From Eremomyces bilateralis CBS 781.70 (Eukaryota): DNA of 64,000 nt. The translations under genes were made by a program, and so were the position numbers. The notes under the pieces were generated by a model. That model was not told where the DNA came from, did not search any database, and saw only the letters and a program-made list of their open reading frames with translations. Location: NCBI GenBank assembly GCA_010015585.1, contig ML975150.1. One strand, written 5' to 3'. This document shows, in pieces, positions 11,256 to 50,028 of the stretch (position 1 is its first letter; every line of letters starts with the position of its first letter).

Positions 11256-13766
11256 CTAATCTTTCGTGATTCTTAAACCCTTTTTGCGAGCTATTAGCGC
11301 CAAAACCTCATCCATACCGCGATGTTGTAACATCTCACGGCACGTATACCCGCTGTTATCTATCGAATCAGGGTTTGCTCCTGCTTCAACTAGAAGCTTT
11401 GCTGCCTCAGTATTCCCTCTCCAAGCTGCCACGAAAAGTGGCGTAGAGTAATACCTTCCCCCTCTTCGATCGATTTTCACGTCATCTCCTCGTTTAAGCA
11501 GCAGCTTGATTATCGACACCATATCATACGACGCCGCGTAATACAGCGGCTGCGTCTGTTCGATCGGTTTCGTGTCCGTGGTCCCGATCAGGAACTGGGC
11601 CCAGGAATCGAAGTTCCCTCCGTGTTTCCCAGATTTCGTTGCGAAGAAGGAGAGGATGAGATCCACGTCAGCGGGTTTCAGTGCGGTAAGTTCTGCGTGA
11701 TACGGCCAGAAGTATGCCGCGTACAGTAGCAATGGGTGCGCTCGGAATCGGTTGCGTAGGTGAACAGATCCGGTAACGCGACCGTTGGAGAACTCGTCGA
11801 AGTAGAGATATGTTAGACATTTCCGCATTATCTCTCTGTTGCTCGACACACTATCCAATGCAAACCCCGAGACGCTTGAAGTTTTGATCCAGTCCGACAT
11901 AAGAAACGTCCGAATTGAATCATGAGATAGCTTAACGCTAGCATTGTCGGACAACATCTTCGCTGCAGGTGGTATATTGCTTTCACTGTAGCTCAACCCT
12001 ACTTCCGCGTGAATCAGCCCCTGACAGAGAGTCAGCAGCGCTTTGGGCTTTGCGAGTCGGCAATCTTCGTCCAAGGACCGGTCAGAGTCGTGGAGGACAA
12101 CGGCTTCCGCGAGTTCGTGGATGGTAAGTGGCCGCACGCTGAAGCTGAGCCAGAGGAGGACATCTCGGGCCAGCGAGCGGTCGGATGGGGGGATGCGTGA
12201 GAGGATTGTGGCGTACGTTTCGTGGAGAGTGGTGGGGAGGTCGTTCAAGGCGGACTTTATAGCGCGACCGGTGCGGAGAGAAGAGAGGTGGTCCATTGAC
12301 AGTTGAGCCCAGCGAAACCTTGAGAGGTGTCAGAAAGATGAGATGGGATCAGAATATACGGAAAGTTAACTTACATGCCGTTCGCTGTAGATGCGATTGT
12401 TTCCAACACTTGTTCGCGGGTTGCTTTGCTCAAGCAACTGAATACTGGCTCTGATTTCATTCGGTAGTCAACATAGCTCGCTATGTCATGATTGATCATA
12501 GACGCCGCCATGTACCGAGTGATGACCATGGAACTAGTTTCCGGGCGTGTATCTGCATCTGTTGTGCAAGTTATTAGTACTCGTAGAGTAGGTGCAACTG
12601 CCACAAGCTCTGCCAGAGCGGACAATATGGTGCCCTGGTGAGGCGTTTCATTAAGTGCATCAACGAGTATAAAGAACTCCTCGAATATATTTATGGACTT
12701 CCGTAAAAGCTCGATAAGCTCGTGGACACTCAGAGTATTCCGTGTGATTAAATGATAGTCGTGTCTCCGAATTGGCCGAATCCACTCGATTATTTCGGGC
12801 TTCCTCTCAGCGGCTTGCGCAAGGATCGAGCCCAGCACGTTGGCCGGCTGCTGCGTACTCGCGTTATTCAGAGAACAATAATGAAATCCGCATACTCTAT
12901 TGTTAGAGGATTGACAGCGACTCTGGAGTTTCTCAACGATGCAGGAACTAGGTTGCTGTGAGCTAGATATGCAAAAGCGGATAATACGGTCCTACGAACA
13001 ATATCATAGTCTTTCCCGCTCCCGCTATTGCCAAAGCAATTAGTGTCAGTACAGCTATATCTGAGACGTCCCCGAAATGGAACTTTCTCTTACATTTGCC
13101 TGTAACCCACATGATTCGTCTCTTATCGCCAACAGAGCTCAGCCAGCCATGGAATTCCTTGTCGAAGAACCATTCTCCACTGCCTGGAGCCCGAAGCTGA
13201 GTTAGATCCGCGTGCTCTTCTTCGGGTCGTACGGGGGCGAGCCAACGGATGATCTCTTCGGTGTCTTTTAGGAGGCTTTCTGATTTGCGTTCTATTATGT
13301 CTTCATGTATTGTGTCTGACAACGACTTCATATCGGCGTGCACTTTTGTCGTCAGCGCTGAAGTCTCATTCATAATGATCATGAGAAACCATGTTTTGGA
13401 CCGTTCAAGAGACGCAATATATCGATCGATATCCCGTTTCGCAAAAGGCCAGGTGAGTGTTCTCTTTGCATTATTTAGCACGCCTGTCGGCACCTTGAGC
13501 CGTTTCTGAAGAGCCACAAGTGTCTCCCGTGTCATCGACACCATTGCTGGCCATGATTCCTCATCCGCTAAGTCGGAATTCCTGGGTAAACGGTCTTCGA
13601 AATCAGCGGAGACGGATTCCAGAATACCCTTAAGCGCAAAAACTTCCAGCATCAGACTTCTCGTCTCCTCTTTCCGATCCTTCAGGGCGGCACCATATGA
13701 GCACAAAGCAGTTGCCACTTGGCCGACTGCAATCACCAGCCCAGCAATTGAGACCGGATCGGTCAT
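11256..13766 (-). CDS. NLR-like protein: N-terminal HeLo-like domain, NACHT NTPase, C-terminal ankyrin repeats (several introns)
   Basis: MTDPVSIAGLVIAVGQV N-terminus; PGSGEWF, WVTGK|GAGKT P-loop across an intron, ILVDALNE Walker B, ANGM|FRWA, PLYYAA and TPLFVAAWRGN ankyrin motifs. Confidence 0.85.
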
Positions 13767-23915: not shown

Positions 23916-25203
23916 TTAGAAATAGATGTAGCAGAGAGGCCCGTCCATTGTGTCCATGACGTCCCGAATCGGCAGAGTTGGTCCATTCACGCCCATATCA
24001 AGCATGTCATCAAGCGATGTATCGCGACTTGGTGGATTGTTGAACATCGTAATGGTACCTGCAATCGCGTCCAGTCGTGTTCTCCGGTTCAGGTTTTGCC
24101 AAATCCACCATAGACGGTCGAGTTGAGCGTGATGCAGGAAGAAGTATGGATCACTATCACTTGGTTAGAATCTTGCCGAATATTGTTAGGGTATTCTTAC
24201 GCAGTGCTGGTGAAGATATCGGCGCCAGGCTCGCCGTTGATAAGATAATGGCCGGCAGCATGAACACCCAGGAAGTAATTGGGTCCAGGAGTGACATTGC
24301 CTTGCATCTTATCTTGGAACTGCGCAATAGTCGAGCTTTGGATGAGAAGGCTGGCTACCCTCAATGCTGACAATCCTTCAGATGCCATGGAGTTCAAAAG
24401 TGATCGCCGAAGACATCTTGGATTGTACCCTAAGCCGTCCGGTTGTGGGTTTGGCGTAGCGTCGTCAAAGGACGGGTCCACGGGACCAATATTGACTGTT
24501 ATGTTTTGGAACGCACCGGACGTTACGCAGCCACCTCCACCCTCCTGCGGGATGACCTGGAAGGGCATAGAGACTGAAGGAATGTAGATGCCACTAAGTT
24601 GCTTAAAGTCACCATCGCCGCCGATGGAGGTGCTACTGCCGTCGAATAGAGGGGCAGCTTTGGCGTTGCTCGCATACTTGGACCAGTTGAAGTATGGAAG
24701 GCTGCCAGTGTAGCCACATTCGTTTTGAAGTGCTTGCTCAAAAGTGCGTATGAAGTATCGATGCCAGGAGAGAAAGTTTCCCTGCAGAAAGTTAGCTATG
24801 CTAGGCTTCACTAGACAGTTATATGGCCTACCGTGAAGTGAATTTGCTGAGTGTTAAGAACGTGGGTCACAACAAAGTCATCGTATCGGTTCCTTGCACC
24901 AGGGGCGCCACTTTTCGAAGGTTTGTTAAACAGACAAAGCACGGAATCCAGATAGTGACGTTTCGCAGGGCTGCTCAGATTATCCCATTCCATCCTTTTT
25001 GCGCTACCGAAAACGTTGCATGAATTGACTGAGCGCGCCGCTCTGGCGGCCACGGACCCGACGCTCGTGGGGTTGGCGGTTTCGTCCACGAGGATGTTTC
25101 TCAAGGCTTGTTCAGCGAGGTCATCGAGTGGCGTTGTGTCATCCTGAGCCCACGCGAACTGGGTGCCCAGGAGTAAAAGGGGATAAATAGAGAGTAGCCG
25201 CAT
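23916..25203 (-). CDS. Secreted tyrosinase (di-copper centre), multi-exon
   Basis: Signal peptide MRLLSIYPLLLLG. RYDDFVVTH..IH / FLSWHRYF (CuA), GYNPRCLRR, GVHAAGH and FFLHHAQLDRLWWIWQ (CuB). LCYIYF stop. Confidence 0.9.
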
Positions 25204-25469
25204 CGTAAAACAAAGTGAACGACAGTAAAAGAAAGTACTGATCTGCAAAGAGAATATTCGACAACAATCCAAGAACTTTTCATCGGTACGTACCTTATCT
25301 TTTATAATGAAGAGGATTAAGAGCCAGGATGCTCGGATCACACCACGTGTCGCCCCTGTGCCTTGGCTAATTTCGTTGTATGCACAGGCAGCCGGAGATA
25401 AGTATGTTAGAGTATTGGGCTATTGGCAGTCACTGACTCACCAGAGAGGTCTAAACGGAGAGGCTGCGA

Positions 25470-26284: not shown

Positions 26285-28112
26285 TTCTCCCTAGTTTTCC
26301 AGTCTCGCTCTCAATCAGGAGTCCTGTTCGCAGTTTCTACAATCTCGCCCTCAGTCAGGATCTCCGTTCGCAGTTCTACAGTACTCTTCTTCAGTTCCAG
26401 TTCCATCGGGTTCGGAGGTAGTCGACACTATCAACGCTCCACGCAGCCAAAATCCTCGGCGTCTATTCCAAGATACGTCTTTGACTATGGCGCCACGACG
26501 CACTATTCGAAAGGGCGAAGCCGGAGAACAAGAGGCAAAGGAGCTTCTAGCTGGCTTCCAGAGCAAGCCCCTCGACGATACGGTCCCAGTGTCGGACAGA
26601 ACTACCTACAAGCGCGGCTACGCCATGGGGCTCTTCAAGGAGTACGAAACACCTGGACTTATCATGCCTATGACCTACACTCACATCCTCTAGATACGTT
26701 CGAGACGTCCTACACCGCGAGCCGGACGATACCTGGTTATCCCTTTGCAGCTCTTCACCAGTAGAGGTAGCCTTGGCTCAGGATACATGTCGTGCCTTTC
26801 TCCAGACCTACGTCTCCGACTCTTGGGACTCCCGGGTTGCGTTGGGAGATCAAGAATCCGAGGAGGTCTGACAGGTTAATCGAGCATCATCTGTCCTAAC
26901 AGTTGTGGAGAGCTCTTGTGCAGGAAGGAGATGAATCAGTCCTTGCACCCAAAAGAAGAGAGAACAGGCATGCCGCGAGGCAATGGAGGCTCGTCAATCC
27001 AAGTGGAAAACTGATTTTAGGACCCGTGTGGGAGATACCTAATGTAAGGTCTGCCCTCTATTTGTGCGGAGAAGGATACTAACGTCCCTGTAGTAGATTG
27101 TCCACGACCTTCCTTTGCTTACCGGTATCTCTAACGAACTTAAGCGCCAAAAGCGGGCCGCGACTGCTCAGGATATAGTAGTCATTATGCAGGCTCTCCT
27201 GAATCGACACGGCGATATCCTTCACTCTACGGCACAACTTAGCGACTTCGCCATGATCGTGCTCTGTATGGCTATTGGCGGATTCCGGACCGACTGTCCT
27301 AGAAACCTGAAGTATGCAGACGTCAGGATAGGGCTCGCTAACCTTAGGGGAAAACGAACGCGTTCGTACGAATCCGAATGCCAGAAAACAATCTGCGAGT
27401 GGCTTCCCTAAAGCCTGCGAGCCCCAGGCGCGAGTTTGCCGTGACCATTTTGCCATGCCGACTGGTCTGCCTTACTAGTCACATCATTGGCCGCGCTCTA
27501 GCACGGCGTACTTTCAGGGCCGGATATACGTCCTTTAGTGAAGTTTTGACCTAGCCGAACCTTCGACGTTGCAAAATTCTTTTCCTTCTGTGGGCACAGG
27601 GACTGAACGATTCCCCATTCGTCGATATCAGCGGGTCACAGTTCTACAGGATATGGTATCGCTACTACGAAGTCGCCGGCATAGAGGATCCTCCGATCCC
27701 CTACTCTATGCGGGTCGGTTCCGGGGGCAAAATTATCGGAATTCTCGGCGAGCTGCTTGAGAATTGGATGCTTATACACAAATCGAATACCCACCAGGAG
27801 TATTATTTCCCGGACTACATGTCTCAGAATCTAACGTGTGTCACGCTGGGCGTGCTCGCGCCTCCTGAGGATCAGGCGGTTGCATATATTGTTACATTGC
27901 TTGGCGCGCAACTCGCAAAAAAACTGCCAAATTTGGGTAACAACTTTTGCAATCGTATAGAATCCTGGATTTCGCCTCCAATACGCGTATCTATATCAAT
28001 TTGACGCGTTTTTGTACCGATTAGCGTGTTTATCGTGATGCCTGACAGGTATTAGTCTATATCTGTTGCGGAAGACGTGTTTTGATGATAATCTAGAGCG
28101 GCATCGACGCCT

Positions 28113-29246
28113 ATACGCCCCCCGCGAGGAATCGATGGAAGCAGGCGGTCTAAACTCGCTCGATATCTCCTTCTCAATTGGGATAAGAAGGAGATAGCCG
28201 ACGAGCTCAAAGTCAGTCGGAAGACAGTCTATAATTACGAGAAGAACATCCTTCCCCACGGTTCAGTTCGAGCGCCTCCGACAGGGCGTACTCTTGGACG
28301 ACAGCGGCGAATGACCCGAGCGGATGAGGATGCACTCCTACAGAAACTGTTATATGATGGATGGTCATACCTAGACGAGATGGTATATTGGTTATATATG
28401 GAGAGGGATGTCAGCGTTAGCCAGTCAACGGTCTGTCGAATGCTAAAGAGACGTGGATGGAACCGGAAAGAACTCCATCGGATTGCACAAGGGTAGAGCC
28501 GTGAGCTCCGGGATAGATTCAAGCAGGAGATGAGCCAATACGATACGGAAGATATCGTCTGTCTTGATGAGGCGATCTTCAACGACAAGACGGGATGGAG
28601 ATACCGCGCCTATGCACCCCGAGGGCATACCGCGAATACCTATGATACGGTGCGTCGAGGGGAGACTCACGGTGTAATTGGGGCATACTGTACGGATGGG
28701 CTCCTGTGTGTGGGTATCAAGAAGGGGTATTATTCGCGCGTTGACTTCCTTGAATGGCTCCGGGATACGCTCCTACCGTCGTTGGCGCGGAGATCACCAC
28801 GACCTCAATTGGTATTAATGGATAACGTCTCTATCCATGTTGCCGAAGAGGTGATCCAGATGATCGAAGCAGAGGGACATCTGGTTCTGTTTTCACCACC
28901 GTACTCACCAGATTTTAACCCAATCGAGATGGTGTGGTCGGTCCTGAAGGCCTGGATTCGACGCAATCATCTCTTCGTTAGAGAGCGCTTCCCTAATTAC
29001 GCTCTGTTCCTCCATTTCGCCATTCGAGCAAGTCGGTGCGATAGGTTCGCACTAGAACACTTCCATCACGCTGCAGATGGAACATACTTAGATGCTGATC
29101 AGCTAGAGGAGCTTCAGCAGCAGCTGTTTGAATATGAGACTGGGGAAGGATACACCGAAGAGGTCCCTATAGCTAGGGAGTTTCCTGTTGCTGAAGCGTT
29201 CCCTATCGTCGTGCGCGACGACGGGCCTGACGATAGAGATGTTTGA
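28113..29246 (+). pseudogene. DD34E transposase (IS630/Tc1-like) with one in-frame TAG at 28494
   Basis: HTH KEIADELKVSRKTVYNY; CLDEA, LMDNVSIH, PPYSPDFNPIEMVWS. Hand count gives 34 residues between the second D and E. Start position is approximate. Confidence 0.88.
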
Positions 29247-29487
29247 TGACAGCATCCCTTTGTTTTAATTGACTCATTTTATATATTGTCTCGACACTCT
29301 AGGTAGTAATAATATAGCTTCTGGATAAGTATGTGGTCTCAAATACCCCGAAAGAGAGAGCGCTGCCGAGATTCGAACCCAGATTATCTGTTCCCCCGAC
29401 CACCCCGCCGAGGGACTAGTGGGGACAGGCAAACGAATGAGAGATAGGGAAAGAAGGCATGATCTAGGAACATCCCGTGGTAGAACT

Positions 29488-32131
29488 TCATATAGGATCA
29501 TCCCGTGGAGGGAGGAAACCTCCTCCGGTTCCGGTTACCCTCGGATTACGCATATCCAGTAGGGCGGATGCTGTTCTCGCAGCATCGATATGGCCCTTGC
29601 CCTTAACCTCGCTCTTGAACAGGCGTAGATCTGACTTAAACTGACGTGCCATACCGTCAGTGATACCCTTCGCTAGAGCGAGTGAGTATAACCGTGTATC
29701 TGGATCAGACATAGTCTTCATATCATCTAGCGTCCAGTCGTTTTGTACAATGGTCTCCTTAGCCCGCATCAATTTATCCTGACGTATCTCCGATTGCGTG
29801 TTCCGGATCTTCCAATCAAAGAACTTTATCACTATCTCGATATCGTCTTCGTCCGTGTTGATGGGGCTCGATGGAGCGCTTTGGGAGATGGGGGCGACAG
29901 AAGCTTGACGAGGGCGGTGGTCTTGAGCAGACTGAGGGCGATATTCAGTGTTCGCGAATGTGGTAGGCGGATGGTTGATATCCGACGGTGGCCCGCGAAA
30001 CTGATCTACACTAGATATCGTTAATACCAAGCTAATTCAGGTAACAGATTACTTACGGAGTGCGATGATGGTCCGATCCAGGAAATTGGAACGGCGTGCC
30101 GGCGTCGAAACCACGTCCGTATAACGACGATTGCCCGTATGGAGGGCGAGCCATAGACACCTGTTCTGCCATCTCTCTTTGTTCCTGACGTTGAGATCGT
30201 CGCTCGTTATTCCTCTGCATCTGTTCCTGCATCTCCATCTGCATCTGTATCTGTGTCATCTCCATTATCTGTTTCTGAGTCTCCTGGAACGATTCCATCA
30301 TCGATTTCGACTGCTGTGCGGCAGATAACTGCTTTGGGCGACGAGCAAGCTTATTCACGGCCCCATCCTGTTGCCAGACACGAACCAATTTGACAGGCGG
30401 GCTGGTCAGCGTTGCGTCTCCTGCGCGTATCGCGTTAGCCCAGGACTGCTGATGGATAGCGGTCATGTTATAATGGAGATGATCTGTTGGGTCAACCCAA
30501 CAGAAACCACGCCAGTTGTTACAGTTCTCGTCGTGGCACTGCCATCGATCGGTGATCTGTTTCTCATAGGCGCCAGCCACTTGTATACGCTCCATCCGAG
30601 CGTCCTGTTGAGATAACAGGTTCTGCGTACGACGAGTGGTCTTTGAGGAAGAGTCCGGGGCAGAAGGCGAGCTGGTAATCCGTACAGGGAGAGCATGATC
30701 TTGTGCTTTTGGAGTCGCTGTCTTTATACGCTTTTTTCCCTTAATACCCTCGCAGGTTATCCGGACAGAGAATATCACCCGGACTGGGGAATGGGGCCGT
30801 TCGGTAACGATATCCTCCGACATCGTATGGATACGTTTCGCGACGACTTCAGTAAAGTCCGTGATAGTCTGAGTCTGTATAGAACCACGCCCGGAAAGTG
30901 AGCGGCAAGAGACATCGAGATCACCGTAATCCCAATCCTCCCCATCAGTCCTCTCCTCAATCTTCGCTGATATCTCATCCTCAAGGACCGCGATATCAAA
31001 CTCGCTCGCACGGGACTTCTCTTTCTTCTCATCTCAGGCCTTCTTCGCATTGATATAGAGGTACCATTCAAGAATTATAGTCCAATCGAGTGGGACGGTA
31101 TCGAAATCTCTGTTTAATCGGCCGGAGGCGACTTCGTCGTTGACCTCTGACGTCGTCGGCGAAAGAATGACCATCTGTTCCCGGTGTTTCTTTAGCGCAC
31201 GCTTATCCATCTCAAGCTGGAGATGGTAATCGGTCGAGTCCTGGAGAGGCCTGAACCAGTCTCCCCGTTCAGGATCTTGATCATGGGGGGCCTATCCTGT
31301 CTAGCCCTGGTACGATCAATACCGGTCGAGAGGAATTCTTCAATCCCCTGTTGGTCTACAGGCGTCCTGATATGTGGCTGACGTTTTTGGCGCTGTATAA
31401 AACGGATGTCCTTGCCCGCCTTCGGCTGACCTTTCTATTTCTCTAGTTCCTCCCTTTGCATCCTCTTCGCTTGCTCGTGGTCCCGGGTAACCCCAGCTAG
31501 ATCATCGCAGATGACACTATATGCCCATGCTCTACCCGGTCGGTTATCTGGTGCCAAGTCACTGTCTAACCAGGCCTTATTCGAAGCGATAGTCGGGGAG
31601 TTATCGACATAACGAGATATCCCTGCTTGCCCTGGGCGCCTCTGGGCGTTGGGAGTAGTATCCACGTCGGTATCTGTATCATCCTCCTCTACTGATTCTT
31701 CAGTGCCAGTCTCCTCCTCTGTAGGAGGAGGTTGGCTACTTCCTCCGGACTTTTTAGCAGGTTGCTGCTTCGCCCTAGGTTTAGGAGGAGCGGTCGTTTT
31801 CTTTCGTTACCGTGGTCAGTTGCTCGGTCGTATCGCCGGATGAGGTTTCCTTCGACCGTTTAGCTCGCTGTTTTGGTGGTGCTTTGGGCTTAGAGGTGGC
31901 CTTTGACTTCGCGGCGGGTTTCTGTGCCGGTTGACTAGGAGCCTTCTGTTTCCGGGCCGGAGGAGCCAACACCTCCTCGTGGCGGTCTGCAATATCATCT
32001 CCAGCGTCTTCGTTCACGATCGGGTCCTCGAAGGTGACTCGACGACGGTTAGATCGGAGTCCATACGAAGGTGGAGGTATGAATTGAGAAGTTTGGGTCT
32101 TGCCCTTGGTCTTGGGGGGAAGAGGAGGCAT
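29488..32131 (-). pseudogene. Second gene of the TIR element: large unknown protein with a Cys/His motif (stops/frameshift; intron ~30011-30056)
   Basis: ORF pieces 31781-32131, 31435-31665, 30053-30823 and 29488-30030 chain together. Motif RWQCHDENCNNWRGFCWVDPTDHLHY...WANAIRAGDATLTSPP. Confidence 0.65.
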
Positions 32132-33632
32132 CTTGACCGGTCTGGCGTTCCACCCACGGTTAAGGAGGTCAAGATTACGAGAAATAGATCGATTCGTCAT
32201 ATAGATCACGATAAACACGTTGATGAGTATGAAAACACGTTAATTGGTACGAAAACGCGTCAAATTGGTATGGGATATGTGTATTGGGGGCGAAATCCAG
32301 GATTCTATACGATTGCAAAAGTCGTTACCCAAATTTGGCAGTTTTTTTGCGAGTTGCGCGCCAAGCAATGTAACAATATATGGATATGCAACCGCCTGAT
32401 GCCCTTTTCTCCCTCCTGGCGGATTTGTCTTCCACGGCGGATCCCCATGCCCCATGCCACCTGAGTGAGGACGAGGATAAAAAGCTTCTTGAGCGACGAG
32501 ATGTGCAAGCTCTCCAGGACCATAAAACGGGACAGCGCAACCTATTGGACCGGTTATCTTTCTTGGCTATTCGAGAGAAGTAGGAGAAATACTTTCGCAA
32601 GGTACAAGATGCAAGGGCGCTGGGCGGCAATATCACCATTGCCGAGTTGCCAATTTCGAACAGCGATGTCATCGTTGATGCAACGCCCGTTGATGAAGAA
32701 GGCCGGGCTTCATTTATTAAGTTACTGGCTAGCTACCCCCGCCTTTTGAAGAGAAGTAAGAGGTATGACTCTAACCGAAACGCTCAAGATCCATGTCCTC
32801 GGTCTATCTGTGTCCTTTGCAATCCGACTGGGAAGGTTTTATCTTTCTCACAACATTCGTCTCTCACCAGGCACTTTCAGATCAAACATTTACGACATCA
32901 TCACCTAGATCAAGGACGCGAATGCCCAGTTCCTGACTGTGGCCTGACTATTGACGCTGGTGTATCTCCGTTTTACTGTCACTTAGAACGCCAGCACGGC
33001 AAACACTATACACCCGCTGCTCATCGACGCATCGAACGTTCGATCTGCGTCCTCTGCGATCCGACCGGGCGTCAATTGTCCTTTTCCCAGCGCCAAAATT
33101 TGACAGAACATTTCAAGGCTGATCATCTACCCTCGGGCCACCTCGATCAAGCTCGTCAATGTCCAGTTCCTGACTGCGGGTCAATGATTGAAGCTGGAAT
33201 AGACCCCTTTTGCGGTCACTTGCAGTGCACGCATGGGAAGCATTACACGCCTCATCTGTGCAAAACTGGGTTAAAGCAGCGTGAACATCATCGATCATAT
33301 AAGCGAGTTCAACCAGCATCCGAACTTCAGAATAAGAGCACAGTTACGGTTAATGTAAAACGGAAAGCAGATGATGATACCGGGAGGAAATTGACCGACT
33401 TAGGTCTGCTCGAGCAAATGCTCCAGGAGGAAGTCTTTGCTGTACATTCGGATGAAGAACCGGTTACGAAGAAACGAAAGCAAAACGGAGTTGCAGATTA
33501 TTGAAGAATTCTAAGTTGGGTAACAGTTGACAGCATCGGTATCATAAAGCTCGTCAATGGAATTGGGATATAACTTAGGAGAAAATTGCAGCGTAAATCA
33601 TCTTCTTCCAACCTTCGATGCTATATATGTGA

Positions 33633-37320: not shown

Positions 37321-38699
37321 CTAAGCACTTATATTGCATTCAGCATTATGTTCTTGACTTTCAAGTACACTCTGTCTCTTGGGGAGACTTGATAGGTTAC
37401 AATGAAATCTCTCATCGCCGTCTCCGTGCTGCCCATCACTGTGACTTTCACCACTTTCGTCTTCCTCTGATGTTAAATGATCACCTCGAAATGAGGAAGC
37501 AAAGGATGATGATTTATGATCAAAGCTCCTCTGTCTCTTCCTGCCTCTGAAATCTTCTTCGCTGCACGTTTCAAGATCTTCTAAGACATCGTCCCGTTGT
37601 CTCTTCTTTGGGCTTTGGCTCCTGCTCTTGACTCGGGCGGCAAAAATATGCCTACATTTGTCGCCAGACGCGTCCAGGATCCTGCTCGAGCCATCCTCTC
37701 CGTCCACAAGAACAAGCCTTCGTGAAACTCCCTGCCGTAAGAAAGTACTCTGTGCAAGAATAGTCCAAGCAAACCGAGCGAACAGACACTCCACGCTTAC
37801 ATCCATAAGTGGCTGCAGCGTGACATTATGGTATAGTTTCGCAAGCTCTCCTGTCAAGCCAGGGGCAAAGACATGGACAACCCAGGAACTCCCTTTAGGT
37901 ACAGCAACCAACCATTTCTGGTCGAACACAGTGTGAATATCCGATCGTAGCAAAATGGAGTTTCGAGCATCATCAGTTGGATCGGTCATAGTGGCGGGAC
38001 GAGAAGTGTATTGAAACATCATGTTTGAACTGAACCACGGCTCCTCACTCCGAGGAATGAGATGCGCAGCTTCCGTGCCCTCAGTGTGGCTGGTTACTCT
38101 GCAAGAAACATCGCGGGACAAGAGGATCTCTGTCAGGCCGCTCTGTCGTGGTAAGATGTCGGACCTGGGGATGCGGAAGATGTCCGATTTCCAAAAAGGT
38201 GGTAGGTTATCGTGGGGGAATTGAAAGTGGGCAAAGGATGGGATGATAGGGTATTTAGGATCTGAGAATAGTTTATGTTAGTTAGTATGTGGAATATAGC
38301 GGTCCAGCGAAACATTAATCCTCGAGACATACCGTCATCAGGGTCCTCTTTGATCCGGAAATAGTAATTCTTCAGCGTTAGGAGGGAGTCTGCCTCCGCT
38401 GCAATTCGTCGTCCTTTTCTCGTCTCTGTCAAAAATCCTTCCCAGGTGCAATTTGCAATTATCGCACAAGCAATCCTTGCCGTCTCGTGATGAATGCCCC
38501 CTTCAGAGCTATCCAGTGCTGGCAATACGAGAAGAATATTGTTTGTGTCTGGATATCCTGGATGGCGAAAATGCACATTGTATGAGTCATTGTTCTTAGG
38601 AAGAGAGGCACCAAGATCCGAGTGCGTTGGTGGTGGGTAGGGTTTGCGAGCTTGAAAGTTGGAGGAGATCGAAGCGGATGGAAGAGTGGTATTTGGCAT
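37321..38699 (-). CDS. Fungal HNH endonuclease-domain protein (HNH_2-type), 2 exons (intron 38262-38332)
   Basis: FRHPGY...GGIHHETARIACAIIA, YPIIPSF..FPHDNLP, RDVSCRVT...AAHLIP...NSILLRSDIHTVFD, LFARFAWTI. The frame looks intact after splicing. Confidence 0.85.
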
Positions 38700-39029: not shown

Positions 39030-42000
39030 TGCGCAGCGTAGCGGAGCAGTTTAAAATCCAAATGGGGCTCCTTTTCCAAAAAAGCACACACGCTCATTGG
39101 TCAGTTGAAAACTCTCTGTGATTGGTCCAAAAATTTCCTTGGCAAAATGATTGGCTGAGAAAAGGGTCCGGAAAGTTCCGTGTCTCTGTGATTCGTCCAA
39201 ATTACTTGGCAAAGTGATTGGCTGAAAAGTTCTTCCATCTCCGAACTCTGTGGACTTCGTTGTCGTCGCCGTCGCCAGGTCCTGCGCTCTCGTTACCTAC
39301 ATGGAGCACCTTTTCACTACTATCACGGCATCAGGCGAATCCTACATTTGGGGGAGTGAGACATAGCATCGTAAGGTATAGACAATTCGACAATGCAGAG
39401 TAGTTGAGTCTCACGGACAATGTCCATAGAAGAAAGTGAAGAGAAAGAAAGCAAGATCCTCGAGACATCTCCGGGCATCATCTATGTTCTTATACCGGCC
39501 GACAGTCCTGAAATCATCTACACGGACACTCGTTGCCTTCATCGTGTACGATACAGTGTCGTCTTGAGCGATTCCATCCCTCAAAATCAACCAGAGGAAG
39601 TCATGCGGGCGAAAGACTGTAGAAACATATGTGCATGTGGTCGAAGGTGGAAGAGTGAATGAAGTAGGGCCGGTCACATAGATTCTACTCAGCTCCTCTG
39701 CTTAAAATCTATTTGTTTTTTCATCTCTTACTCACAATTTTCTTCTCTACCTTATCGCTTTCCTGGCACCTTTGTCGACTCTCTATCAATTAACTACTAT
39801 CGGTCTAGCATCACAGTCTATATTGTCAATTGGAGATCTATCAAAGCGATCCCGCATGGCGGAGGTCAGCCTAAGTACTATACCTCCTCCTGGAGGTTAT
39901 GCACCCGACCCCCCTTCCGATGTTCCCGACCCATCCAATCCACTGCATCGATGTATTCACTGTAAACATCGGAAGGATGCTGCTTATGACCTGAAGCGCA
40001 ATGGAGAGTATTATGCTAAGTGTAAGGCTTGCCGTGAGAGTCATACATCTTCTGTAAGTGTGTTTCGAAGTCCCGCATCATATTCAAACTAATATTACCC
40101 TAGAGGAAGCGCCCTCGCTATCAACGAGATACAAGCGCATTAATCCAGAGGCAAGTGAAGCCTCGTCTACAGTCGGAAGGATTCTTTCCCCGAGGTCAAC
40201 ACGAGGAAGATACTCCTTCTCAAGCAGCAGTTCGCAGAGACTTCGTGGATATTCAACGTGAGCACCGTTCTCGCAGGAGACACGGTGAGATTGTCTCTTC
40301 GACGCCCAATTTCGATGACTTCGTTACACAACGGACGCGTCCGCCTGGACAGTATCCTGGCGCGACCCATGTTCCATCCCGGACTCCACCTAATCTGTCC
40401 CAGCTTGGAAATCCAATCTTTCCGCCTATTGAAGACGAGCAGGAGGATGGTGAGCAACCTGTCCGCGGTCCAATCTTCCGCCGATACTCCCTACCTTCAC
40501 TTCGCGGTCGAACTCGGAATCTATCTCGGTTTACTGGATCAAGCGCTCGGTCCGAATCCTCTAGAGGTTTACTTCGCGAACTTCAACCGCCTCCTAGCCA
40601 GGAGGCTCCCGAACTACAATACTTTCTGTGTAGACTCTGTGACACCTACCGTGAAGAGTCTCGGAAAGTGAGACATATGGAATCGTGTACCTATTGCAGG
40701 GATTATACTCCTGTATCTGAGCGTACGCAGTGGTGTTTGCAAGGTGGTCATGAAGTGAACCAGTCTTCGTGCATGGAAGATAAACAAGAGCAAGGAGCAG
40801 ATTCCGAGGCCTTATATTTCCTCAACTGTGTATCCTGTCGTCAAAGTACAGACGGGTGGATTAATAATGACCATCGCCGGAGAGCCCCAGAGCAGTCTCA
40901 ACGCCGCTCTAGCTTGGATCCTCCGAGAAGTCGCACCCCTTCGCGTCCAGGTCCCCATCGACGCGCTCGAGAACTTGCTACCGCGGATCTACTAGCCCCT
41001 AATCCTCCTATCGATTTCTCTAGTCTAACTCTCGGAACCACGGATCCGGCACTCACCGAACGCGATAAAACGCTTATACAGAACTTTCATCGAAAGGTCG
41101 ATTCTGTTAATATGGCCACCTGTGTCCGCTGCCATGAGCGATGGCTTGGGATAAGCTACGACGAGAACGGTGTTTGCAAGTCATGCCTTACCATTGATGC
41201 AAAGCGTGGCCCCGACGAACCATATCTCTGGAGCGATGAGAACAATGCCGATCCCGGGGAATTTCCGGATATTTGTCTCCCTAAGCTTTCTCAGATCGAG
41301 GAGATGCTTATCTCGCGTGTCCATACCTTTGTTGAGGTTCGGCAATACCGCGGCCAGCAGTACAAGTACTCTGGTCATATCTGTCACTTCCTCTCGAATA
41401 CTGCACGCGTTTATGCGCGTCTCCCTCTCTTGCCTAGAGAGCTAGATGTTATCATCCTTCGCCCTTCTAATCATGCTACGGATCCAAGGGTTAATCGTCA
41501 ATTCATTCGCGATTATCGAGTGCGTCGTAGCGCAGTGATAAAATGGCTCTACTTCCTTCAAGAACACCATCCTGCCTATGCTTCTATCGACATTGATCTA
41601 ACTCGACTCGACGCCTTGCCCGAAAACGGCTCAGTTGAAGAGGACCTGCTTATCTATGACCACCAGGATGAGCCCAATGTTGAAATGCAGGCAGACGACT
41701 TTGACGACCCAGAAGACGACGATATATCCCCGCCGCAAGCCAGTGCAGTCCCGGACTTGAACCCGGACCGCCAAGAGATCGATCAGATGCGTCTTGAAAT
41801 TGGAGCACGTAGAAGGGAACGGCTCCAGGCCAGTCAAGCACCCTTCATGACCATGCCATCCCTCCGTGCGACCCCTCTTGCAGACTTGAACAAATCAGTC
41901 CCATGTTTGACATGGGCTTTCCCTACACTGTTTCCATACGGGAGGGCGGAGTTTGCCACGCCAAGGATCCGAGCTATCAAGTACAACGAATTCGTCAAGC

Positions 42001-45000
42001 ATCTGCTTCTCTACAAGGATGGACGCTTCGCACAGCACCCTCGCTTTCGATATGTTGTCTTCAATACAATCATGAGGAGCCAAGTCAACTCACGCGCGAG
42101 CTTTTTCGTCAAGAAGATCCGCCCTGGTCCCACTGACTTAACAGTTGACGATCTTCGACGAGCTTTCGAGGAAGATACTCCAGAAGCGGAAGCTATGGTT
42201 AACTCTATCTCCCGTTACTCCGGCAGTATGCGCGGCACCCGTTCATTTTGGGCAGGAAAGCGTCGGGCTTTAGAAGCCGGTGTCCGACAACTCGGGTGTC
42301 CGCATCTCTTTATCACCTTCTCTGCAGCCGATTATCACTGGGATGATCTGATGCAATCCATGCCGAACTACGAGTAGTGGAAATCCGCCACTTCAGTACA
42401 ACGTATTCGCATTGCTCGTGATGCGGTCCGAGATAATCTATTGATTGTCGCGAATCATTTCCACCGTCGTTTCGAGGCCTTCCGGACCGAGGTGCTTATT
42501 CCAAAGTTTAACATCGTCGACTACTGGCATCGTTTCGAATGGCAATCACGCGGTAGTACCCATGACCATGGTTCATATTGGATGGAGGGTGACGGCTTAC
42601 CTAGTCCTGAACTTCAAGACAATATCGACCAACTGACGGAATTTGCTCGGTTTTGGGGAATCCACATCCATGCTATCAATCCAGACCGTGGGCGTGATTG
42701 GGTTCGTCCTGAGGAGAGGTCAGAACTGCAGATGCCGTTTGCGGACCAACCGAACACACTGCGCCATCTTTCCAACCTACTGAACCGTGTTCAGGTTCAT
42801 CATTGTACTAGGCAATATTATCTTCGTACTAATAAGACGACTAGCATTGAGGAGTGTCGTATTAAGGCCCCGTGGCCCATTACGACTACGCCAGAGATGG
42901 TGAAGGATCCTGGAAGATCGTGGTACCGTTCCCAATCCGAACGCAATGACCCAAAGCTCAACCAGTACAACCCGCTTATTACTAAGGCATGGTGCGCCAA
43001 TACGGACATCCAGCCCTGTACCGGTAAAGATGGAGTTATCTTCTATCTCGGTAAGTACACTACCAAGGCCGAAGAGGCATCAGAGTTATATCGTGATATG
43101 ACTTCAAAGCTCCTTCCGCGTCTCAATTCGAATCGCCCCTACCAATCACTCGTGGAAAAGACGATGAATCGTCTCGTAGGCGAACGGAATTGGTCTGCGC
43201 AAGAGATCTGCCATCTTCTCTTAGACCTGCCTTTGTGCTCCCAGAGTCGGATGGTCATCAATGTTGACTGTCGCCCGGAGCAGCAGCACGCTGAGCTCCA
43301 CTTCCTCGAGGATCATGAGAGCGGTGTTCAGGTTCGCGCTGGCAAGTCACTGCTTCAGAAGTATAAAGATCGTCCTCCGGAGTGCGATAGCATTACTTAT
43401 CTCGAGCTTCTGCGTGAATATGACCTCCAGAAATACCGAAGGCGACCTCGTGCTTCGGAACGGGTGTTGAACTTCTTCCCACGCTATCGTCCTGAAATCG
43501 ATCCAGAGAACTTTGCTCGAGTAAAGTTGATGTTGCACCATCCGTTCCGTGAAGTCGATGATCTAAAGGCATACCTTTACGATCCAGAGAAGACTTGGGA
43601 TACGTTCTACGAGGCTTAGGAAGAGTGTAAAACGTTTCATGAAGGCCATACTCCCGACGGGTATGAGGTGGAGATGCTAACGGGGGATAATGATGAGGAG
43701 CCACTCGATTCCGAGGAGGAGGATATTCTTGCTTCCTGGCAAGAGCTTGCACAAGTTTGCCCCGGTCGAGATAGTGCGCAGGTCGAGGACCCTGACCGCA
43801 TTGGCGACCGAGACATCGACCGTGCATATATCCTTGATGGCATGATCGGTAACTATCTCGACCTCGATGTCGAGTTCTGGAAACGGATAAAGGCGGACTT
43901 TCCGGCTAACTTAGTAGCCGTTGCTGCTGGGACATATGCTAGCCTAAATGGCAAACAGAAACTCTGTCAGGACCTCGTCATGCGTCACTTTCACGCCTAC
44001 CAGGAGCACCGGCCTCCGCCTCAGCTCCTGCTAAGCATCGATGGTAAGGGTGGGACAGGGAAGACGTACCTTATTATGATCCTTTCCGAGGCGCTTGAGA
44101 CTGTCGCGAGTGCGATAGGGCATACTACCTCCCCAATCGTTCGGGCTGCCCCTACCGGTGTAGCCGCGCATAACATTTCGGGTAAGACCCTTCATTCCCT
44201 ATTCCGCCTCACTCCGAAGGCCAAGCAGTACGAAAAGTTGTTAAAGCAAGCCGCTCAGGCTATTCAGACTGCATTCAAAGGTGTTCAATATATCGTCATT
44301 GACGAGAAGTCAATGGTTGGCTTGAAACTTCTTGCTTGGATTGACCGTCGATGTAATGAGATTTGGCCTGATCGTAGTGACCGTCCATTTGGTGGCCTCA
44401 ACGTTATCCTAGCTGGCGACTTCTTCCAGCTGCCGCCCGTTGGCGAGAAGCCGCTCTTTACCAGCCAGAACAACATTTCAAAGAACATCGATGAGAGCCA
44501 TGGCCATAGACTCTATTAAGGCTTCTTCCGAACAATTGAGCTAGACGTTGTTGTCCGTCAGCAGGGACCTGAGGAGGCAATGTTTCGAAATGCACTCGAA
44601 GACTTGCGAACCGGGAATGTCACGGTTGATAACTGGCGCCTTCTTGCTACGCGAGTTGCTTCTACTCTCTCGCCCAGTGACGTCTAAAGCTTCCAGGGTG
44701 CCCTTCACGTCTACGCCAAGAAGGCAGACGTCATTCAATTCAACCATACACAGATGCGCGAAAGTGGCCGACCAGTTGTCCTGATGATTGCAACTAATGA
44801 GGGGAAAGGTGCAGCGAGCGCCACTACCGAACAAGCCGGCAACCTGCAGAACACCTTCCCTATATCTATTGGTTCCGTGTCATGCTTACCGAGAATATCT
44901 GGACCGAACGAGGATTGGTAAACGGTACTATGGGTAATGTACGCGACATGGCCTGGGAAGCGGACGTTCAAGATCCCCGGAAGTCGCCTCCCACGGCATT

Positions 45001-45979
45001 ACTGGTTGCATTCGACAGCTATGATGGTCCATCCTTTCGAGAGGTTAACGGTGAAAAGCTCGTGCCTATATTCCGGTCCCGTCGAGACTTCGTTCGCGAT
45101 TCTGTCGCCTGCCTGCGTACCCAGTTTCCAATGGTTCTGGCGTATGCTATCACCATCCACAAGAGCCAGGGAATGACACTAGAAAAGGCAGTTTTGAACA
45201 TCGCTGATAAGCGGGACTTTGCGCCGGGATTAACTTATGTAGCTGTCTCGCGTGTTAAGTCGCTGAAAGGGGTGTTATTCGAAGAATCGTTTGATCTACC
45301 GCGATTGCGCATGCAAGTAACTGCTACAACTCAAGCTAGGAACGATGATGTCGCTCGGCGCGCATTGTATCACGTCGCGTCCTCCGTACATACTACATAC
45401 CGTCTACTCCTTGCGCAGCATGGCTAATGTGTCTATACAGGATCCTCAGCAATTCGCGGTCGGTTTCATGCCACCGCCTCTACGACGTGTTTAACTTCCG
45501 ATCCGATCATCCTCTCCACCTCGGAGGTCGTCCCCGCTACTTGCGAGTGAGATCGATACACCTACAACGGGGTCTAACCCGTCCGGCACTCAAGGTTCCT
45601 GAATGGAGATTTAGAGTGCTTAAAAACGTTCATAGTTTGCTTGATCGTCCCATCAATCAAAAGAACACCTCAATAAGGTTGGTTGTTAGGTGCAACCTGA
45701 GTAAGCGGGAATCGCTTGATTCATATCCTCTATAACGTTGCGGATATGGAGTCTGCGTAGATAGATCAAAATCAACGAGTTATAGTATATCATCTGCTGT
45801 TTATTTCATTATGTGGTTTAGCTATCGGTGAAACCAGTACTAATAAGCGCGTGTGATTGGCCGTAGAGGATCAGGACTTCATCAGCAAACTGTGGCTGGG
45901 TATGCTGTTAAAACTTGGGAGGTTCTGCTCCCTACGCTGCGCACCCCTTGGGTCCATTTATGACCCTCGGGCGTATTTT
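39030..45979 (+). mobile_element. Helitron2/FoHeli-like rolling-circle transposon with asymmetric terminal inverted repeats
   Basis: TGCGCAGCGTAGCGGAGCAG (39030-39049) versus CTGCTCCCTACGCTGCGCA (45925-45943). 3' hairpin CCCTTGGGTC/GACCCTCGGG (45945-45971), then ATTTTT. Exact ends uncertain by a few bp. Confidence 0.82.
39856..45427 (+). pseudogene. RepHel: HUH Rep endonuclease plus PIF1 helicase, with four in-frame stops and one frameshift
   Basis: LFITFSAAD, FEWQSRGSTHDH, YLGKYTTKAE (Rep motifs). GKGGTGKT, APTGVAA, IDEKSM, GDFFQLPPV, AITIHKSQGMTL, YVAVSRV (PIF1). Stops at 42375, 43617, 44517, ~44685; -1 shift near 44878. Confidence 0.92.
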
Positions 45980-46400
45980 TCTGGATGTCTGGTTCCGAGT
46001 ACCATCTTTTAAGACCATCACCCTTTGTCACTCTCCTGCGCACGTAGGCCCGGATATCATCAGTGATAAGGTCACTCTGAATAGGAATTATGTCGTCCAT
46101 ACGAGCAAATTTGCTGATTATAGACTCGATGTCTCGTTCTTGGCGGCTTGTCACAAGGAGATGGACATTCTTTCGGTAGGAGCTTTGGAAATCTTTCATC
46201 CACGAGAGCAATCCTTCGCTTGGCGACCCTGTCCTCGCGTTGCATTCATCAAGAGCATCGAGAACAATCCAGACTTCTTTTACTTGCAGGATCATCTGTA
46301 AGAAAGTCTTATAAAGTGCTTCACACGATGGTTGTCGATGTCCGTCTTCGTAAGAGGAAAGGAGAGTCTGTAAAGCTATCAAAGTATCTCCAGAGTGTAG
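45980..46400 (-). pseudogene. NACHT-domain gene fragment
   Basis: QPSCEAL..TF..M...VWIVLDALDEC...HLLVTSRQERDI...DDIRAYVR..V...LKRW; truncated at both ends. Confidence 0.8.
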
Positions 46401-46584
46401 GGCAGTCCAAATGAGCTCATCTGGATTAAATGATGAATTACGGAGGTGTACGAAGGGAGGGATTGCCGGGGGCGCAAAACATAAACCAACCATCTAATTC
46501 CCCGTAACGTATCCCTCGCTGACTAAGAATGTATGGTAACATTGTTGGCCAATGGCAGACAAGCCGAGTAGTACTACAGTGAGA

Positions 46585-46689: not shown

Positions 46690-48264
46690 ATCAGAATCTG
46701 AAGCCTTTCCAAATATAAACCTAGATTCTGGACTCATTCGCCTGCTTAGCGGGTCTGCTCAGTTTTTGCATCGGCTCCGATCTTCACAAAACGGAACACG
46801 AGCAAATAGTCGAAATGATCGAAATGATGAGCGAGAGAATAATTGTTTAACACGCGTAAGAAAAGCGAGGAGATCTGATGTACACCGAAGATAGCGCATT
46901 CTGAAGCGGCTGATGACTTGAGAATAGCTTTGCGTAGACTTGAACTGCAAGGGGTGCGTCTCCGAATTGCTGGATCGGCGCTAGAATCGGAGGCAGACGA
47001 CATCGTCGTGTGCGAAGTTGAGGTTATAAGGCATTTTTCGAAGGGAGAGAGTTATGCCGCATTTGATATATCACACGTCATGTCGCGAGTCTCCTAGGGA
47101 CATACTAGGAGCTACAGATGCCCAGCCCCCGCCACACCAGAGCTCTTTCGAACTCGTTGGTCAGACCTTCAAATGGCGTGCCGTTTGGAGGTCCAGCCTG
47201 TTTGTATCTGTACGATACCTCTTAAAGTGAATGGGAAGATTGTGAGGGCCTGGAACGAACTGTACACATTAGTTCTCATCAATGTGCGCATCTGATTCGC
47301 CAGACTGTTGTAGCATGAATATCCAACAGCTGCGACGCGTTACTTTTATCCCTCCTCATCTCATCCATCCCAACAGCGCGTATCCCACGCTCGTCGCGGA
47401 GCATCGACAGCCTCTCGATGCCGGCTCAACAGAAATGCCGACTTGCTAATCATAGGCCATCGCGACGCAGTGCGGCAGCGGGAGCGGAGCCGGTTTGAAA
47501 GTGAACCCTGGAGCGGAACGAGGCTCCACGGCTTCTACATCAAACGAGAACCAACAACGCCGAGTGGAGCCCGCTACGACGGTTGCGCTGGAGACTTTGG
47601 GATTCCGGAGCCTCATCCAGGCAAGATGGCGTCAAAACATGGGATTCACGGTCCTGTTGGAAGAGGACGTTGCGCTTGAGGACCAGTTTTCTGTAGGCGC
47701 CGGTATGGAGCCCGCCCCAAACACACCCCTCCCGCTATCGGGAAGAGCCGCATTGCCGATTCATCCCCCCCATTGGATGCTTCAGCGTCAACTCAGGACG
47801 GTGTGAAACGAAAGTCCATTATGATTCATGATCTAACAATGGTCAACAACACTGACAGGAATAGATGTCTCTCGTGGGAACTGATCGCATGGTGATGCTC
47901 TCCTGATACCTTCGCTAGGCACGGATGCTCTTGGGTACACGGATCTCGGTTCAGCAGGTATATAATCCAGTCATGGACAGCTTCACACTTCCTGTCTTCT
48001 GCTTCATCTTCAGATCCATTCAGTCTTTGCAAACAAAGTCGTGACGAATTTCCTTGACTCATTCTTTCTGCTAGTCGGTTTTCTCTATCTGCTTTGGTTG
48101 CTGGCATTCATCGCTCTCTATATATCTACCGGCAGGTCCAGTCTTTACATACGACCATCCCCAACATTCATTGTTGAAAAGCATTTTATATTGCATTCCT
48201 TCTCGCTCTGTAGCCCACAAACGAACGAATCTCCTTCACGAATCGAACTATCAACCCCGTCATC

Positions 48265-48912
48265 ATGCCTATCCCAAGCTACGGAGCCGCTCCCCTGAGC
48301 ACCACCTTCCTCCTTGTCCGGGGCTTGCAAGTCATTGCCATGATTGGCATTGTTGGAATGACGGCGAATTTTGTCAGCGAGATGGTCGCATATGGTCGCG
48401 AGCCTTCTAAGGAGGTGGTTGGCACTCTCAGCGTCGTATGTTTTCCAAGGTCCTAACACTCTTCCCGTTCTGACCGTTTCTACCCGCAGACATGCATCGC
48501 AACTCTCTACACCCTGGTGTCCATCGCCTTCTATTGGGCCCAAGCCAACATCGGCCTCTTCGTCATGTGCGGTGTCGATTCCCTCCTCCTCATCGCCTGG
48601 ATCGTCGTCGCCGTCACCGTTGGCAAACCGCTCTCGTTCCTCCACTGCCCCGCCCTTGGCGATTCCACCCAAGCGCAAGACGCAATCCAGACCTACTCGA
48701 TGGTTCAATCCATGAAGACCAACCTCGGCGTTCCCGGCAGCCAACTCGACCTTCGCGCGTGGGCGGGCTTCACCAAGGCCAATTGCTACGAGACGAAGGC
48801 GATCTGGGGTCTTAGCATCGCCCTTTGCATTCTCTATACGGTGTCTGCACTGCTTTTGCCGACACTGTTTTTCAAGAACAAGAAGGCTGGATACGTTAAG
48901 GATCCTGCATAG
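48265..48912 (+). CDS. MARVEL-like 4-TM membrane protein (intron 48436-48489)
   Basis: Four hydrophobic helices; RGLQ..IGIVGM, CYETKAIWGLSIALCIL; clean GT..AG intron. Confidence 0.8.
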
Positions 48913-50028
48913 ACGGATCTAACGTGTACACAAGCCAAATTCATGGAGAACGTTGTTAAGATGTTAGTCTGTCATCTGATCTGGATCAAATATGAACCGC
49001 GAGAAACCTTGCATGCCTAGATGGCAGCTTGTCCGCAATGGCATGGGGAAGGCGTTTGGGGATTCATGTTGCTCATTTCACCTAATTGTCCTGGTGCTCG
49101 ACAGGCGTTCCGAGCAGATTTTGTCTAATACCATAATGAAAAGTCCAAAATATATACATCAACACATCAAGGATAAACAAGCTCCCTTCGGACATTTTCC
49201 TCTTGCCTGTTCCCGTCGTCCATCACCGATTTCGCCGTGCCCCCAAGCTGTTGTCCCCCACGTCCGCATCACATTCCCAGCAGCGCAGCCCGAACCCTCA
49301 GATCACTCGGCATGGATATGGCAATTGAATATTGACGAAGCGCAATTGGACGTTGATTCTCACAAAATTACCTGTTTGGAGATTAGTGGCATAGTTGGTA
49401 TCGCTCAGGCCCGACGACCGATCACCATGAAGCGCCCCCGGTAGTTTGGTGACCCGCAGTTCCAACCGAATTTCTTGCTCTCTCCAGTGACGTCTGCATT
49501 TTGATGTCCGTCGAAGCTCCATATGCACGCCGCTCTCCGCACTTACGCCTTTTTCAAATGTACGTCTCAAACTAATTTTCGCCGATTATCGCTGCAATCC
49601 TGCGATTCCTGTCAACCACGAGCTCGAGTGCCGTTTTACTTCCTGCATAGTGCATACAAGCCCCCGCAGGAACAAGGAACAGAGGACCTCTCATGCATGC
49701 TCTCGACCCGCCCATCCGCGAGTCCATCATGTCCTCCATCCAGTAATTTCGTCCGGCGCTGATCCCTCGACCGTGTTCGGAGACGGGGACCTGGATCATC
49801 AGGCCTCGCAATTTTTTTTTCCTCTCGTCAAGCCGACGGGGCGAGAAAAAAACTGCAATAGGGTGACGGATTTATAGTGACACGCAAGTCTGTTTCTTGC
49901 AGCTGTCTCACCCTCACCCAATCGCCGCCATTCCCCGCCTTCCTGTATCGCGACTACTCCCGCCATCTCCTACTCCCATCGTAAGAGTTTAGCAAGATAG
50001 TGTTGGAAGCCCTTGAACGAACGTCGAA

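Follow-up and report, generated by a model that had tools for sequence, protein, structure and literature searches.

Within a 64,000-nucleotide stretch of contig ML975150.1 from Eremomyces bilateralis CBS 781.70 (assembly GCA_010015585.1; the whole stretch is called the window below), positions 27873-32398 are occupied by a 4,526-bp element that begins with CAGGCGG, ends with CCGCCTG, and separates the two parts of a DUF3435 recombinase gene. We consider it very likely that this element represents a now dead cut-and-paste transposon of the IS630/Tc1 (DD34E) type from a deep fungal IS630/Tc1-like branch that has no name as yet, and that it inserted into the DUF3435 gene with a gain of 2 bp, AT. 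Duplication of TA counts as the signature of the entire IS630/Tc1/mariner superfamily, and annotation pipelines set the boundaries of elements by it. In place of this TA target-site duplication, the one copy described here has AT/AT flanks.

Empty site and target-site duplication

The interrupted gene lies on the forward strand. Its 5' part (26487..27872, up to D428 of the homologue P0122) was delimited by tblastn of P0122 and P0123, and its 3' part (32401..33504, from A429 of P0122 to the stop) by tblastn of P0122. To find these homologues, 1.84 billion representatives were scanned, without a profile, for similarity to the 106 residues to the left of the insertion. The scan returned 42 proteins at E <= 0.001, two of which are close, P0122 (793 aa, 88% identity) and P0123 (379 aa, 83% identity). 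P0122 maps to window positions 26487-33501, with D428 ending at 27872 and A429 starting at 32401, which places the insertion site inside the DUF3435 gene, as originally proposed, and exactly between the codons for D428 and A429 of P0122. In the protein alignment both homologues run uninterrupted across the insertion point (GVLAPPED|ALFSLL, GVLAPPEDALFSLL). One copy of the AT (27871-27872) supplies the second and third bases of a GAT codon in the host gene, and the other (32399-32400) was read directly from the sequence at the right junction.

Four deletion models were scripted, and the resulting translations were compared with P0122 over the 48 residues that follow GVLAPPE. Removal of 4,528 bases, i.e. 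the element and one AT, gave 44/48 residues identical to P0122, whereas removal of 4,526 bases (element only), 4,527 bases (element and one base) or 4,530 bases (element and both ATs) gave 13/48, 11/48 and 10/48, respectively. Therefore the net 2-bp duplication, which the original prediction had deduced from a restored reading frame, is real. Intact homologues that lack the D codon at the junction would have refuted the prediction; it passes this check, as E-D-A is kept in both of the close homologues. Judged from these proteins, the pre-insertion sequence is GAG GAT GCC, and what was inserted is the element plus two bases.

How these two bases are best described is a separate matter. The longest direct repeat flanking the element is GAT (27870-27872 and 32398-32400) rather than AT, because the right inverted repeat ends in G. 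The same empty site, GAGGATGCC, results from a 2-bp duplication of AT, from a 3-bp duplication of GAT with the inverted repeat one base shorter, or from a blunt insertion of T-CAGG...CCTG-A. We prefer the 2-bp AT reading because relatives start with CAG right after the duplicated dinucleotide and because a 2-bp staggered attack on a symmetric dinucleotide is the mode of insertion described for the superfamily (PMC5481204).

Several points weigh against this preference. The blunt insertion and the 3-bp GAT repeat fit the sequence equally well; there is one copy, whose empty site is inferred from homologues as proteins rather than as DNA; and TA is found in all comparators with known flanks, both the prokaryotic relatives and the fungal elements covered by the published account drawn on here. 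The element is also old, with 11 differences between its ends, and a later change at the junction is possible in principle. To arrive at AT/AT by such a route, matching changes are needed in both flanks and in the host codon.

Ends of the element

The element is bounded by terminal inverted repeats (TIRs) at 27873..28031 (+ strand, tip CAGGCGGTTGCATAT) and 32233..32398 (- strand), the right one having 6 bases more than the left near its tip. In a gapped alignment of 172 columns (27873-28044 versus 32227-32398) there are 153 matches, 11 mismatches and 8 gap columns, so that 153/164 aligned bases are identical. The match is carried out to the tips, with CAGGCGGTTGCATAT on both sides, and this end-to-end agreement is far beyond chance. 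A repeat search recovered two pairs of inverted arms, one of 109 nt (27883-27991 and 32274-32382, 96% complementary) and one of 39 nt (27993-28031 and 32233-32271, 90% complementary). All 11 mismatches are transitions (11/11). The TIR size of ~160 bp and the element length of 4,526 bp given in the original prediction hold. Without mismatch, the 15-nt tip occurs at exactly two places in the window, one at each end of the element.

The two repeats differ by a 6-bp indel 10 bases from the tip. A TA duplication concealed by alternative ends was considered and rejected: the nearest TAs lie inside the repeat at this indel, and the tips would then become part of the host gene, which the homologues exclude.

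Towards the interior, the right end contains three tandem units of ~20 bp (AAACRCGTY...GTAY) at 32213..32272 (+), two of them found by pattern search and the third, with a 1-base insertion, read by eye. In the left TIR two such units lie at about 27994-28031 (+), one found by the pattern (28014-28031, with 2 mismatches) and its neighbour by eye. These subterminal units are candidate inner binding sites for the transposase. Long ends with inner repeats recall the inverted repeat/direct repeat (IR/DR) layout of the ends of Sleeping Beauty. Inner and outer DRs of that transposon are named in the legend to Fig. 4 of PMC5801840.

Transposase gene

The transposase gene (28038..29246, + strand) encodes a helix-turn-helix (HTH) region followed by a DDE_3 domain and, from 28092 onward, occupies a single frame that is interrupted once, by a TAG at 28494-28496. 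The reading frame comprises ~385-395 codons. No ATG is present within the frame from 28092; a possible gene start is the ATG at 28038 followed by a putative 48-nt GT...AG intron (28049-28096).

The C-terminal 249 residues match PF13358 DDE_3 (E 2.6e-31, 108.9 bits, cut-off 28.6). The N-terminal 134 residues match helix-turn-helix models, HTH_23 with 24.8 bits (cut-off 24.6) and HTH_32 with 30.5 bits, which is under its cut-off of 33.7. Against the IS630 model of NCBIfam (NF033545, cut-off 100) the gene, split by its stop, scores 98.9 bits with the catalytic piece and 43.4 bits with the N-terminal piece, of which the model spans positions 6-113; the full-length relatives P0007 and P0010 reach 163 and 145 bits. 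In a 34-row alignment D24, D109 and E144 are invariant. The last two are spaced by 34 residues and align with the second D and the E of Sleeping Beauty SB100X (PDB 5cr4, E 6.7e-5). The motif is therefore DD34E, and the Tc1/IS630-type identity that had been assigned to the element is well founded. S179 and D182 are likewise invariant in the 34 rows and belong to a conserved C-terminal extension of the fungal clade.

Seven relatives align within the single window frame over 329-381 residues at 44-49% identity. At conserved positions the window transposase has twelve changes of its own (e.g., R47N, Y48T, L133S), and none of the twelve could be linked to target choice. The residue that pairs with H187 of Sleeping Beauty is Arg, which is invariant across the whole fungal clade and thus not specific to this element.

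Relatives of the transposase

A word-indexed protein search with the transposase returned 244 proteins at E <= 0.001, with identity never above 52%. The four matches at E < 1e-50 that carry an organism name are all fungal (Talaromyces, two from Paraphaeosphaeria, and Lipomyces), and named bacterial IS630 proteins begin at E ~1e-14. The best matches among prokaryotic genomes show 30-39% identity, which for most of them is confined to the initial ~155 residues of the catalytic piece.

For a quick maximum-likelihood tree, 80 rows were combined: the window transposase, 66 of 121 database proteins (those with 230 aa or more, plus two named Deinococcus IS630 proteins), and a hand-picked 13 of 79 prokaryotic loci. 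The window transposase joins the base of a 58-row clade that holds all four fungus-named proteins (Shimodaira-Hasegawa-like approximate likelihood ratio test [SH-aLRT] support 95), and stands alone on a branch of length 0.92, the median being 0.35. A branch with support 98 parts this fungal clade from 11 of the 15 prokaryotic rows; two others, from Poribacteria and Dehalococcoidia, adjoin the clade.

Second gene of the element

Convergent with the transposase gene, and unrelated to it, is a second gene of ~900 codons (29488..32200, - strand), pieced together from open reading frames (ORFs) in three frames. It has frame changes near 31800 and 31295, in-frame stops at 31435-31437 and 31034-31036, and a 46-nt intron at 30011-30056. 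The intron is confirmed by a public gene model, P0164 (429 aa, 100% identical), annotated as a hypothetical protein of a Dothideomycete fungus, which covers the 3' part of the gene and splices exactly as we had read it. The element is, on the reading of its frames, no longer able to move by itself: the transposase frame is cut by a premature stop, and two stops and two frame changes disrupt the second gene.

What the second gene might encode was approached in several ways. A Pfam search at E 0.01 found no family, and in protein-atlas searches the top score, 0.89, fell short of the 0.9 line and the clusters had no names. Its only database match in the range of 400-1,276 aa is its own gene model, P0164, and a single-sequence AlphaFold model was poor (mean predicted local distance difference test score, pLDDT, 43). 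The product has Lys/Pro-rich N-terminal stretches and a stretch containing Cys and His (CHDENCNNWRGFCW).

Both genes begin at the inner edges of the inverted ends, an arrangement suggesting that the second gene may belong to the element as a rule. The large size of the element is due to the presence of this ~2.7-kb gene, which the original prediction did not mention. With 4,526 bp and two genes, the element departs from the compact single-gene form (about 1-2.5 kb) of the superfamily.

Comparison with known systems

Among fungal Tc1-type elements are Ant1 of Aspergillus niger and, from Fusarium, impala, both of which the original prediction had named. Ant1 is unusually large, at about 4.8 kb, and both duplicate TA. 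Tc1 and Sleeping Beauty, the animal DD34E elements, have in common with the element described here a catalytic triad that can be aligned and a CAG tip, but the sequence match is weak (E 6.7e-5), the target is TA, and there is a single gene in ~1.6 kb.

Bacterial IS630 elements (NF033545) share the HTH and DDE_3 domains and the DD34E spacing, and the ends of some members start with CAG. They are, however, 0.9-1.1 kb in length, with one gene and a TA target, whereas the element here is 4.5 kb in length, with AT and two genes, the second with a confirmed intron and the transposase gene with a putative one; in addition to an identity of only 30-39%, the conserved C-terminal extension marks the fungal clade. 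For eight prokaryotic relatives present in multiple copies the edges of the block shared between copies were compared, and TA is found at both edges in 18/20 copies, belonging to 7/8 groups; in the eighth group the edges are unclear. An IS630 relative from Trueperaceae ends in TA|CAGCGGGTTGCGC...CCGCTG|TA in 4/4 copies. The tips of this IS630 relative in a Trueperaceae metagenome-assembled genome (CAGCGGGTTGCGC; L010-L012, L016) resemble those of the element (CAGGCGGTTGCAT, 27873-27885), although the transposases are only ~36% identical.

Also comparable is the fungal Dici family of IS630-Tc1-mariner elements (Bigey et al. 2026; PMC13469147), which is DD34E and has an IS630 domain. Dici1/2 are 4.0-4.2 kb in length with three coding sequences, and their ends start with CAGTCGGT; other members of the family have TIRs of 50-187 bp (PMC13469147). 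According to that account, Dici1/2 insert at TA (sequence logo of 157 sites), and TA is present "invariably" in 22 other fungal elements. As described, Dici and the present element have in common that they are fungal, DD34E and multi-gene, and their ends are alike as well, starting here with CAGGCGGT. The extra genes of Dici are a small orphan and a transposase relic, in contrast to a gene of ~900 codons, and Dici transposases are 432-478 aa in length, compared with ~385-395 aa in the window and 318-424 aa for 33 of the 34 aligned relatives. Thus, of the features described for Dici, neither the TA duplication nor the transposase length of 432-478 aa is found in this element.

Target choice

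Under the explanation that we favour, the element would have inserted into the DUF3435 recombinase gene at the AT of a GAT codon. The 3' ends of the transposon would attack at points 2 bp apart on the two target strands, and gap repair would then duplicate AT. As AT is palindromic like TA, the symmetric chemistry would be kept and the order of the bases reversed. We infer both that a transposase made the insertion and that its two joins were staggered by 2 bp. Staggering of this kind at a symmetric dinucleotide is established as the mechanism of Mos1 (PMC5481204), the structure of which explains the choice of TA by adenine-specific trapping of a flipped base (PMC5481204).

Why the target was AT might be explained by a habit of the lineage, i.e. 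the transposase of this branch prefers AT over TA or readily accepts it, be it strictly or in a relaxed manner. We regard this as a plausible reading, if somewhat short of probable. Other deep branches of the superfamily have other targets (TNA in Tc4/Tc5, ANT in TBE1, and 3 bp in Zator), the duplication is clean and exact in the deletion models, and the transposase stands alone on its long branch, with at most 52% identity to any protein found. The length of that branch may, however, be partly or even simply the result of pseudogene decay. In Sleeping Beauty, the TA-specific enzyme with the best measurements, AT sites are very rare (894 of 2,018,489; PMC5801840, Table 1), and non-TA events have been called mainly aberrant (PMC7987939), which makes a slip a poor explanation of a copy met at random. 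Against a lineage habit stand the single copy and the TA of every relative with known flanks, at least in the sources used, and in a literature search no IS630/Tc1/mariner family was met that duplicates AT, although this is no proof of absence.

Alternatively, a TA-preferring transposase might, exceptionally, have integrated at a non-TA site. Such a one-off slip, to which we give the same, less than even, credence, would agree with the use of TA by all relatives known from those sources. In Sleeping Beauty 28,794 of 2,018,489 sites (~1.4%) are non-TA, AT being among these, and non-TA integrations with perfect duplications have been confirmed by polymerase chain reaction (PMC5801840). Yet AT is one of the rarer non-TA sites, amounting to 0.044% of all, a rate that stems from over-expressed engineered Sleeping Beauty and not from natural copies (PMC5801840). 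The left flank of the element (GCCTCCTGA, 27861-27869) is also similar to the right tip with its flank (ACCGCCTGA, 32391-32399) at 7/9 bases. This likeness recalls the end-like motif at non-TA sites of Sleeping Beauty, but it lies away from the junction itself and may be due to chance. On one copy, the considerations for habit and for slip roughly balance.

It is improbable that no transposase-made duplication took place at all, as would be the case if T-CAGG...CCTG-A had been inserted bluntly between A and T, or if the element, excised and linear, had been captured at a chromosome break through end joining via G-A-T microhomology. Both routes yield the empty site given above, and the 3-bp flanking repeat GAT is of a size typical of microhomology. 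However, DDE transposases in this superfamily join to their targets in a staggered manner (PMC5481204), and relatives begin at CAG directly after the duplicated dinucleotide. Moreover, both ends are complete to the last base, and terminal bases would often be lost in end joining.

Refuted is the alternative raised in the original prediction, in which the inverted repeat includes both ATs (ATCAGG...CCTGAT) and nothing was duplicated: AT being palindromic, a formal extension of the repeat by two bases is possible, but the corresponding 4,530-base removal shifts the reading frame, both homologues keep the D, and a compensating indel would be needed within a few bases of the junction, where none is seen.

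Taking the favoured explanation one step further, the fungal branch would have switched its target from TA to AT while keeping the symmetric 2-bp stagger, in which case the base flipped and trapped by the enzyme would have to differ from the adenine that Mos1 traps, and the second gene would be a regular passenger. We put this forward tentatively, as a proposal that is rather more doubtful than probable.

Interrupted DUF3435 gene

The host gene is a DUF3435 tyrosine-recombinase-like ("captain-like") pseudogene. By tblastn its 5' segments are 71-94% identical, per segment, to P0122 or P0123, and the 3' part shares 302/370 residues with residues 426-793 of P0122. A 49-nt gap at 26646-26694, accompanied by a change of frame, fits an intron. 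In-frame stops are found at 26869-26871, 27552-27554 and 32581-32583 (TAG), and the frame changes near 26900 and near 27350. The original prediction had the transposon knock out a captain. That the gene is split by the insertion is borne out, but there are at least five other lesions in it (three stops and at least two frame changes), and the insertion therefore need not be the inactivating event.

What the gene shares with the captains of Starships and with Crypton-like DUF3435 tyrosine recombinases is the DUF3435 homology: P0122, which is 82-88% identical to the window gene, reaches 58.9 bits with the Pfam model of this domain (cut-off 25.8), compared with 15.8 bits for the piece from the window. 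In contrast to Starship captains the gene here is a pseudogene with several lesions, and it is a captain candidate by homology. No boundaries of a Starship, for which no search was made, and no accessory genes typical of one were identified. The insertion point lies shortly downstream of the stretch aligned with the DUF3435 core. The C-terminal half of the gene (window 32750-33300, + strand), like that of P0122, contains two tandem repeats of ~90 residues, each with the patterns CVLC..PTG...H....H and CPVP.CG...H....H, which resemble a pair of zinc fingers.

Other copies and genomic neighbourhood

When the element was compared with the rest of the window (blastn, word size 9, E 10), only chance matches of 14-17 nt were obtained. 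A search of the window with the tip pattern found the two ends and one match with 3 mismatches, 1.46 being expected by chance. A 29-nt stretch of the TIR had 0 matches in bacterial and archaeal genome contigs. The element may be rare even in its own genome, because the window holds no second copy, the second gene matches only its own gene model, and relatives of the transposase do not exceed 52% identity. Repeat-induced point mutation (RIP) was considered as an origin of the decay and rejected, since the element does not have RIP-like indices (TpA/ApT 0.73, (CpA+TpG)/(ApC+GpT) 1.04), even though the TIR mismatches are all transitions.

Just upstream of the DUF3435 gene there is a gene with a tyrosinase domain (24200-25419, -), and downstream of it an ORF with an HNH_2 endonuclease domain (37324-38277, -). 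Another decayed mobile element, a Helitron-like gene, is located 8 kb downstream (40104-44519, +); it combines DUF6570, Helitron_like_N and a PIF1 helicase, and is split into three consecutive ORFs of the same frame parted by in-frame stops. Pieces resembling NOD-like receptors (NLRs), with NPHP3_N/NACHT domains, are found at 11259-12991 (-) and 45885-46493 (-), the first of which also has ankyrin repeats. At about 48000-50000 of the window the G+C content climbs from 0.46-0.51 to 0.52-0.58, and from about 50 kb the ORFs resemble ordinary cellular genes (MFS, JAB/MPN, PX, EB1, TPR). This step may be the edge of a block rich in mobile elements.

Implications for target choice in the superfamily

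Judged by the homologous proteins, this is an unusual and real insertion, and the 2-bp AT flank is real for this copy. With its second gene, the element joins the few multi-gene members of a superfamily whose members are usually described as having a single gene. A family-wide change of target from TA to AT is possible, the case for it being built on a single copy. If the AT should turn out to be only a slip, the element would be a clean natural non-TA integration with a perfect duplication, and such events have so far come mainly from engineered systems. If, on the other hand, a natural lineage does use AT, it would provide a ready comparison for how target choice is encoded, and would bear on the re-aiming of vectors of the Sleeping Beauty type.

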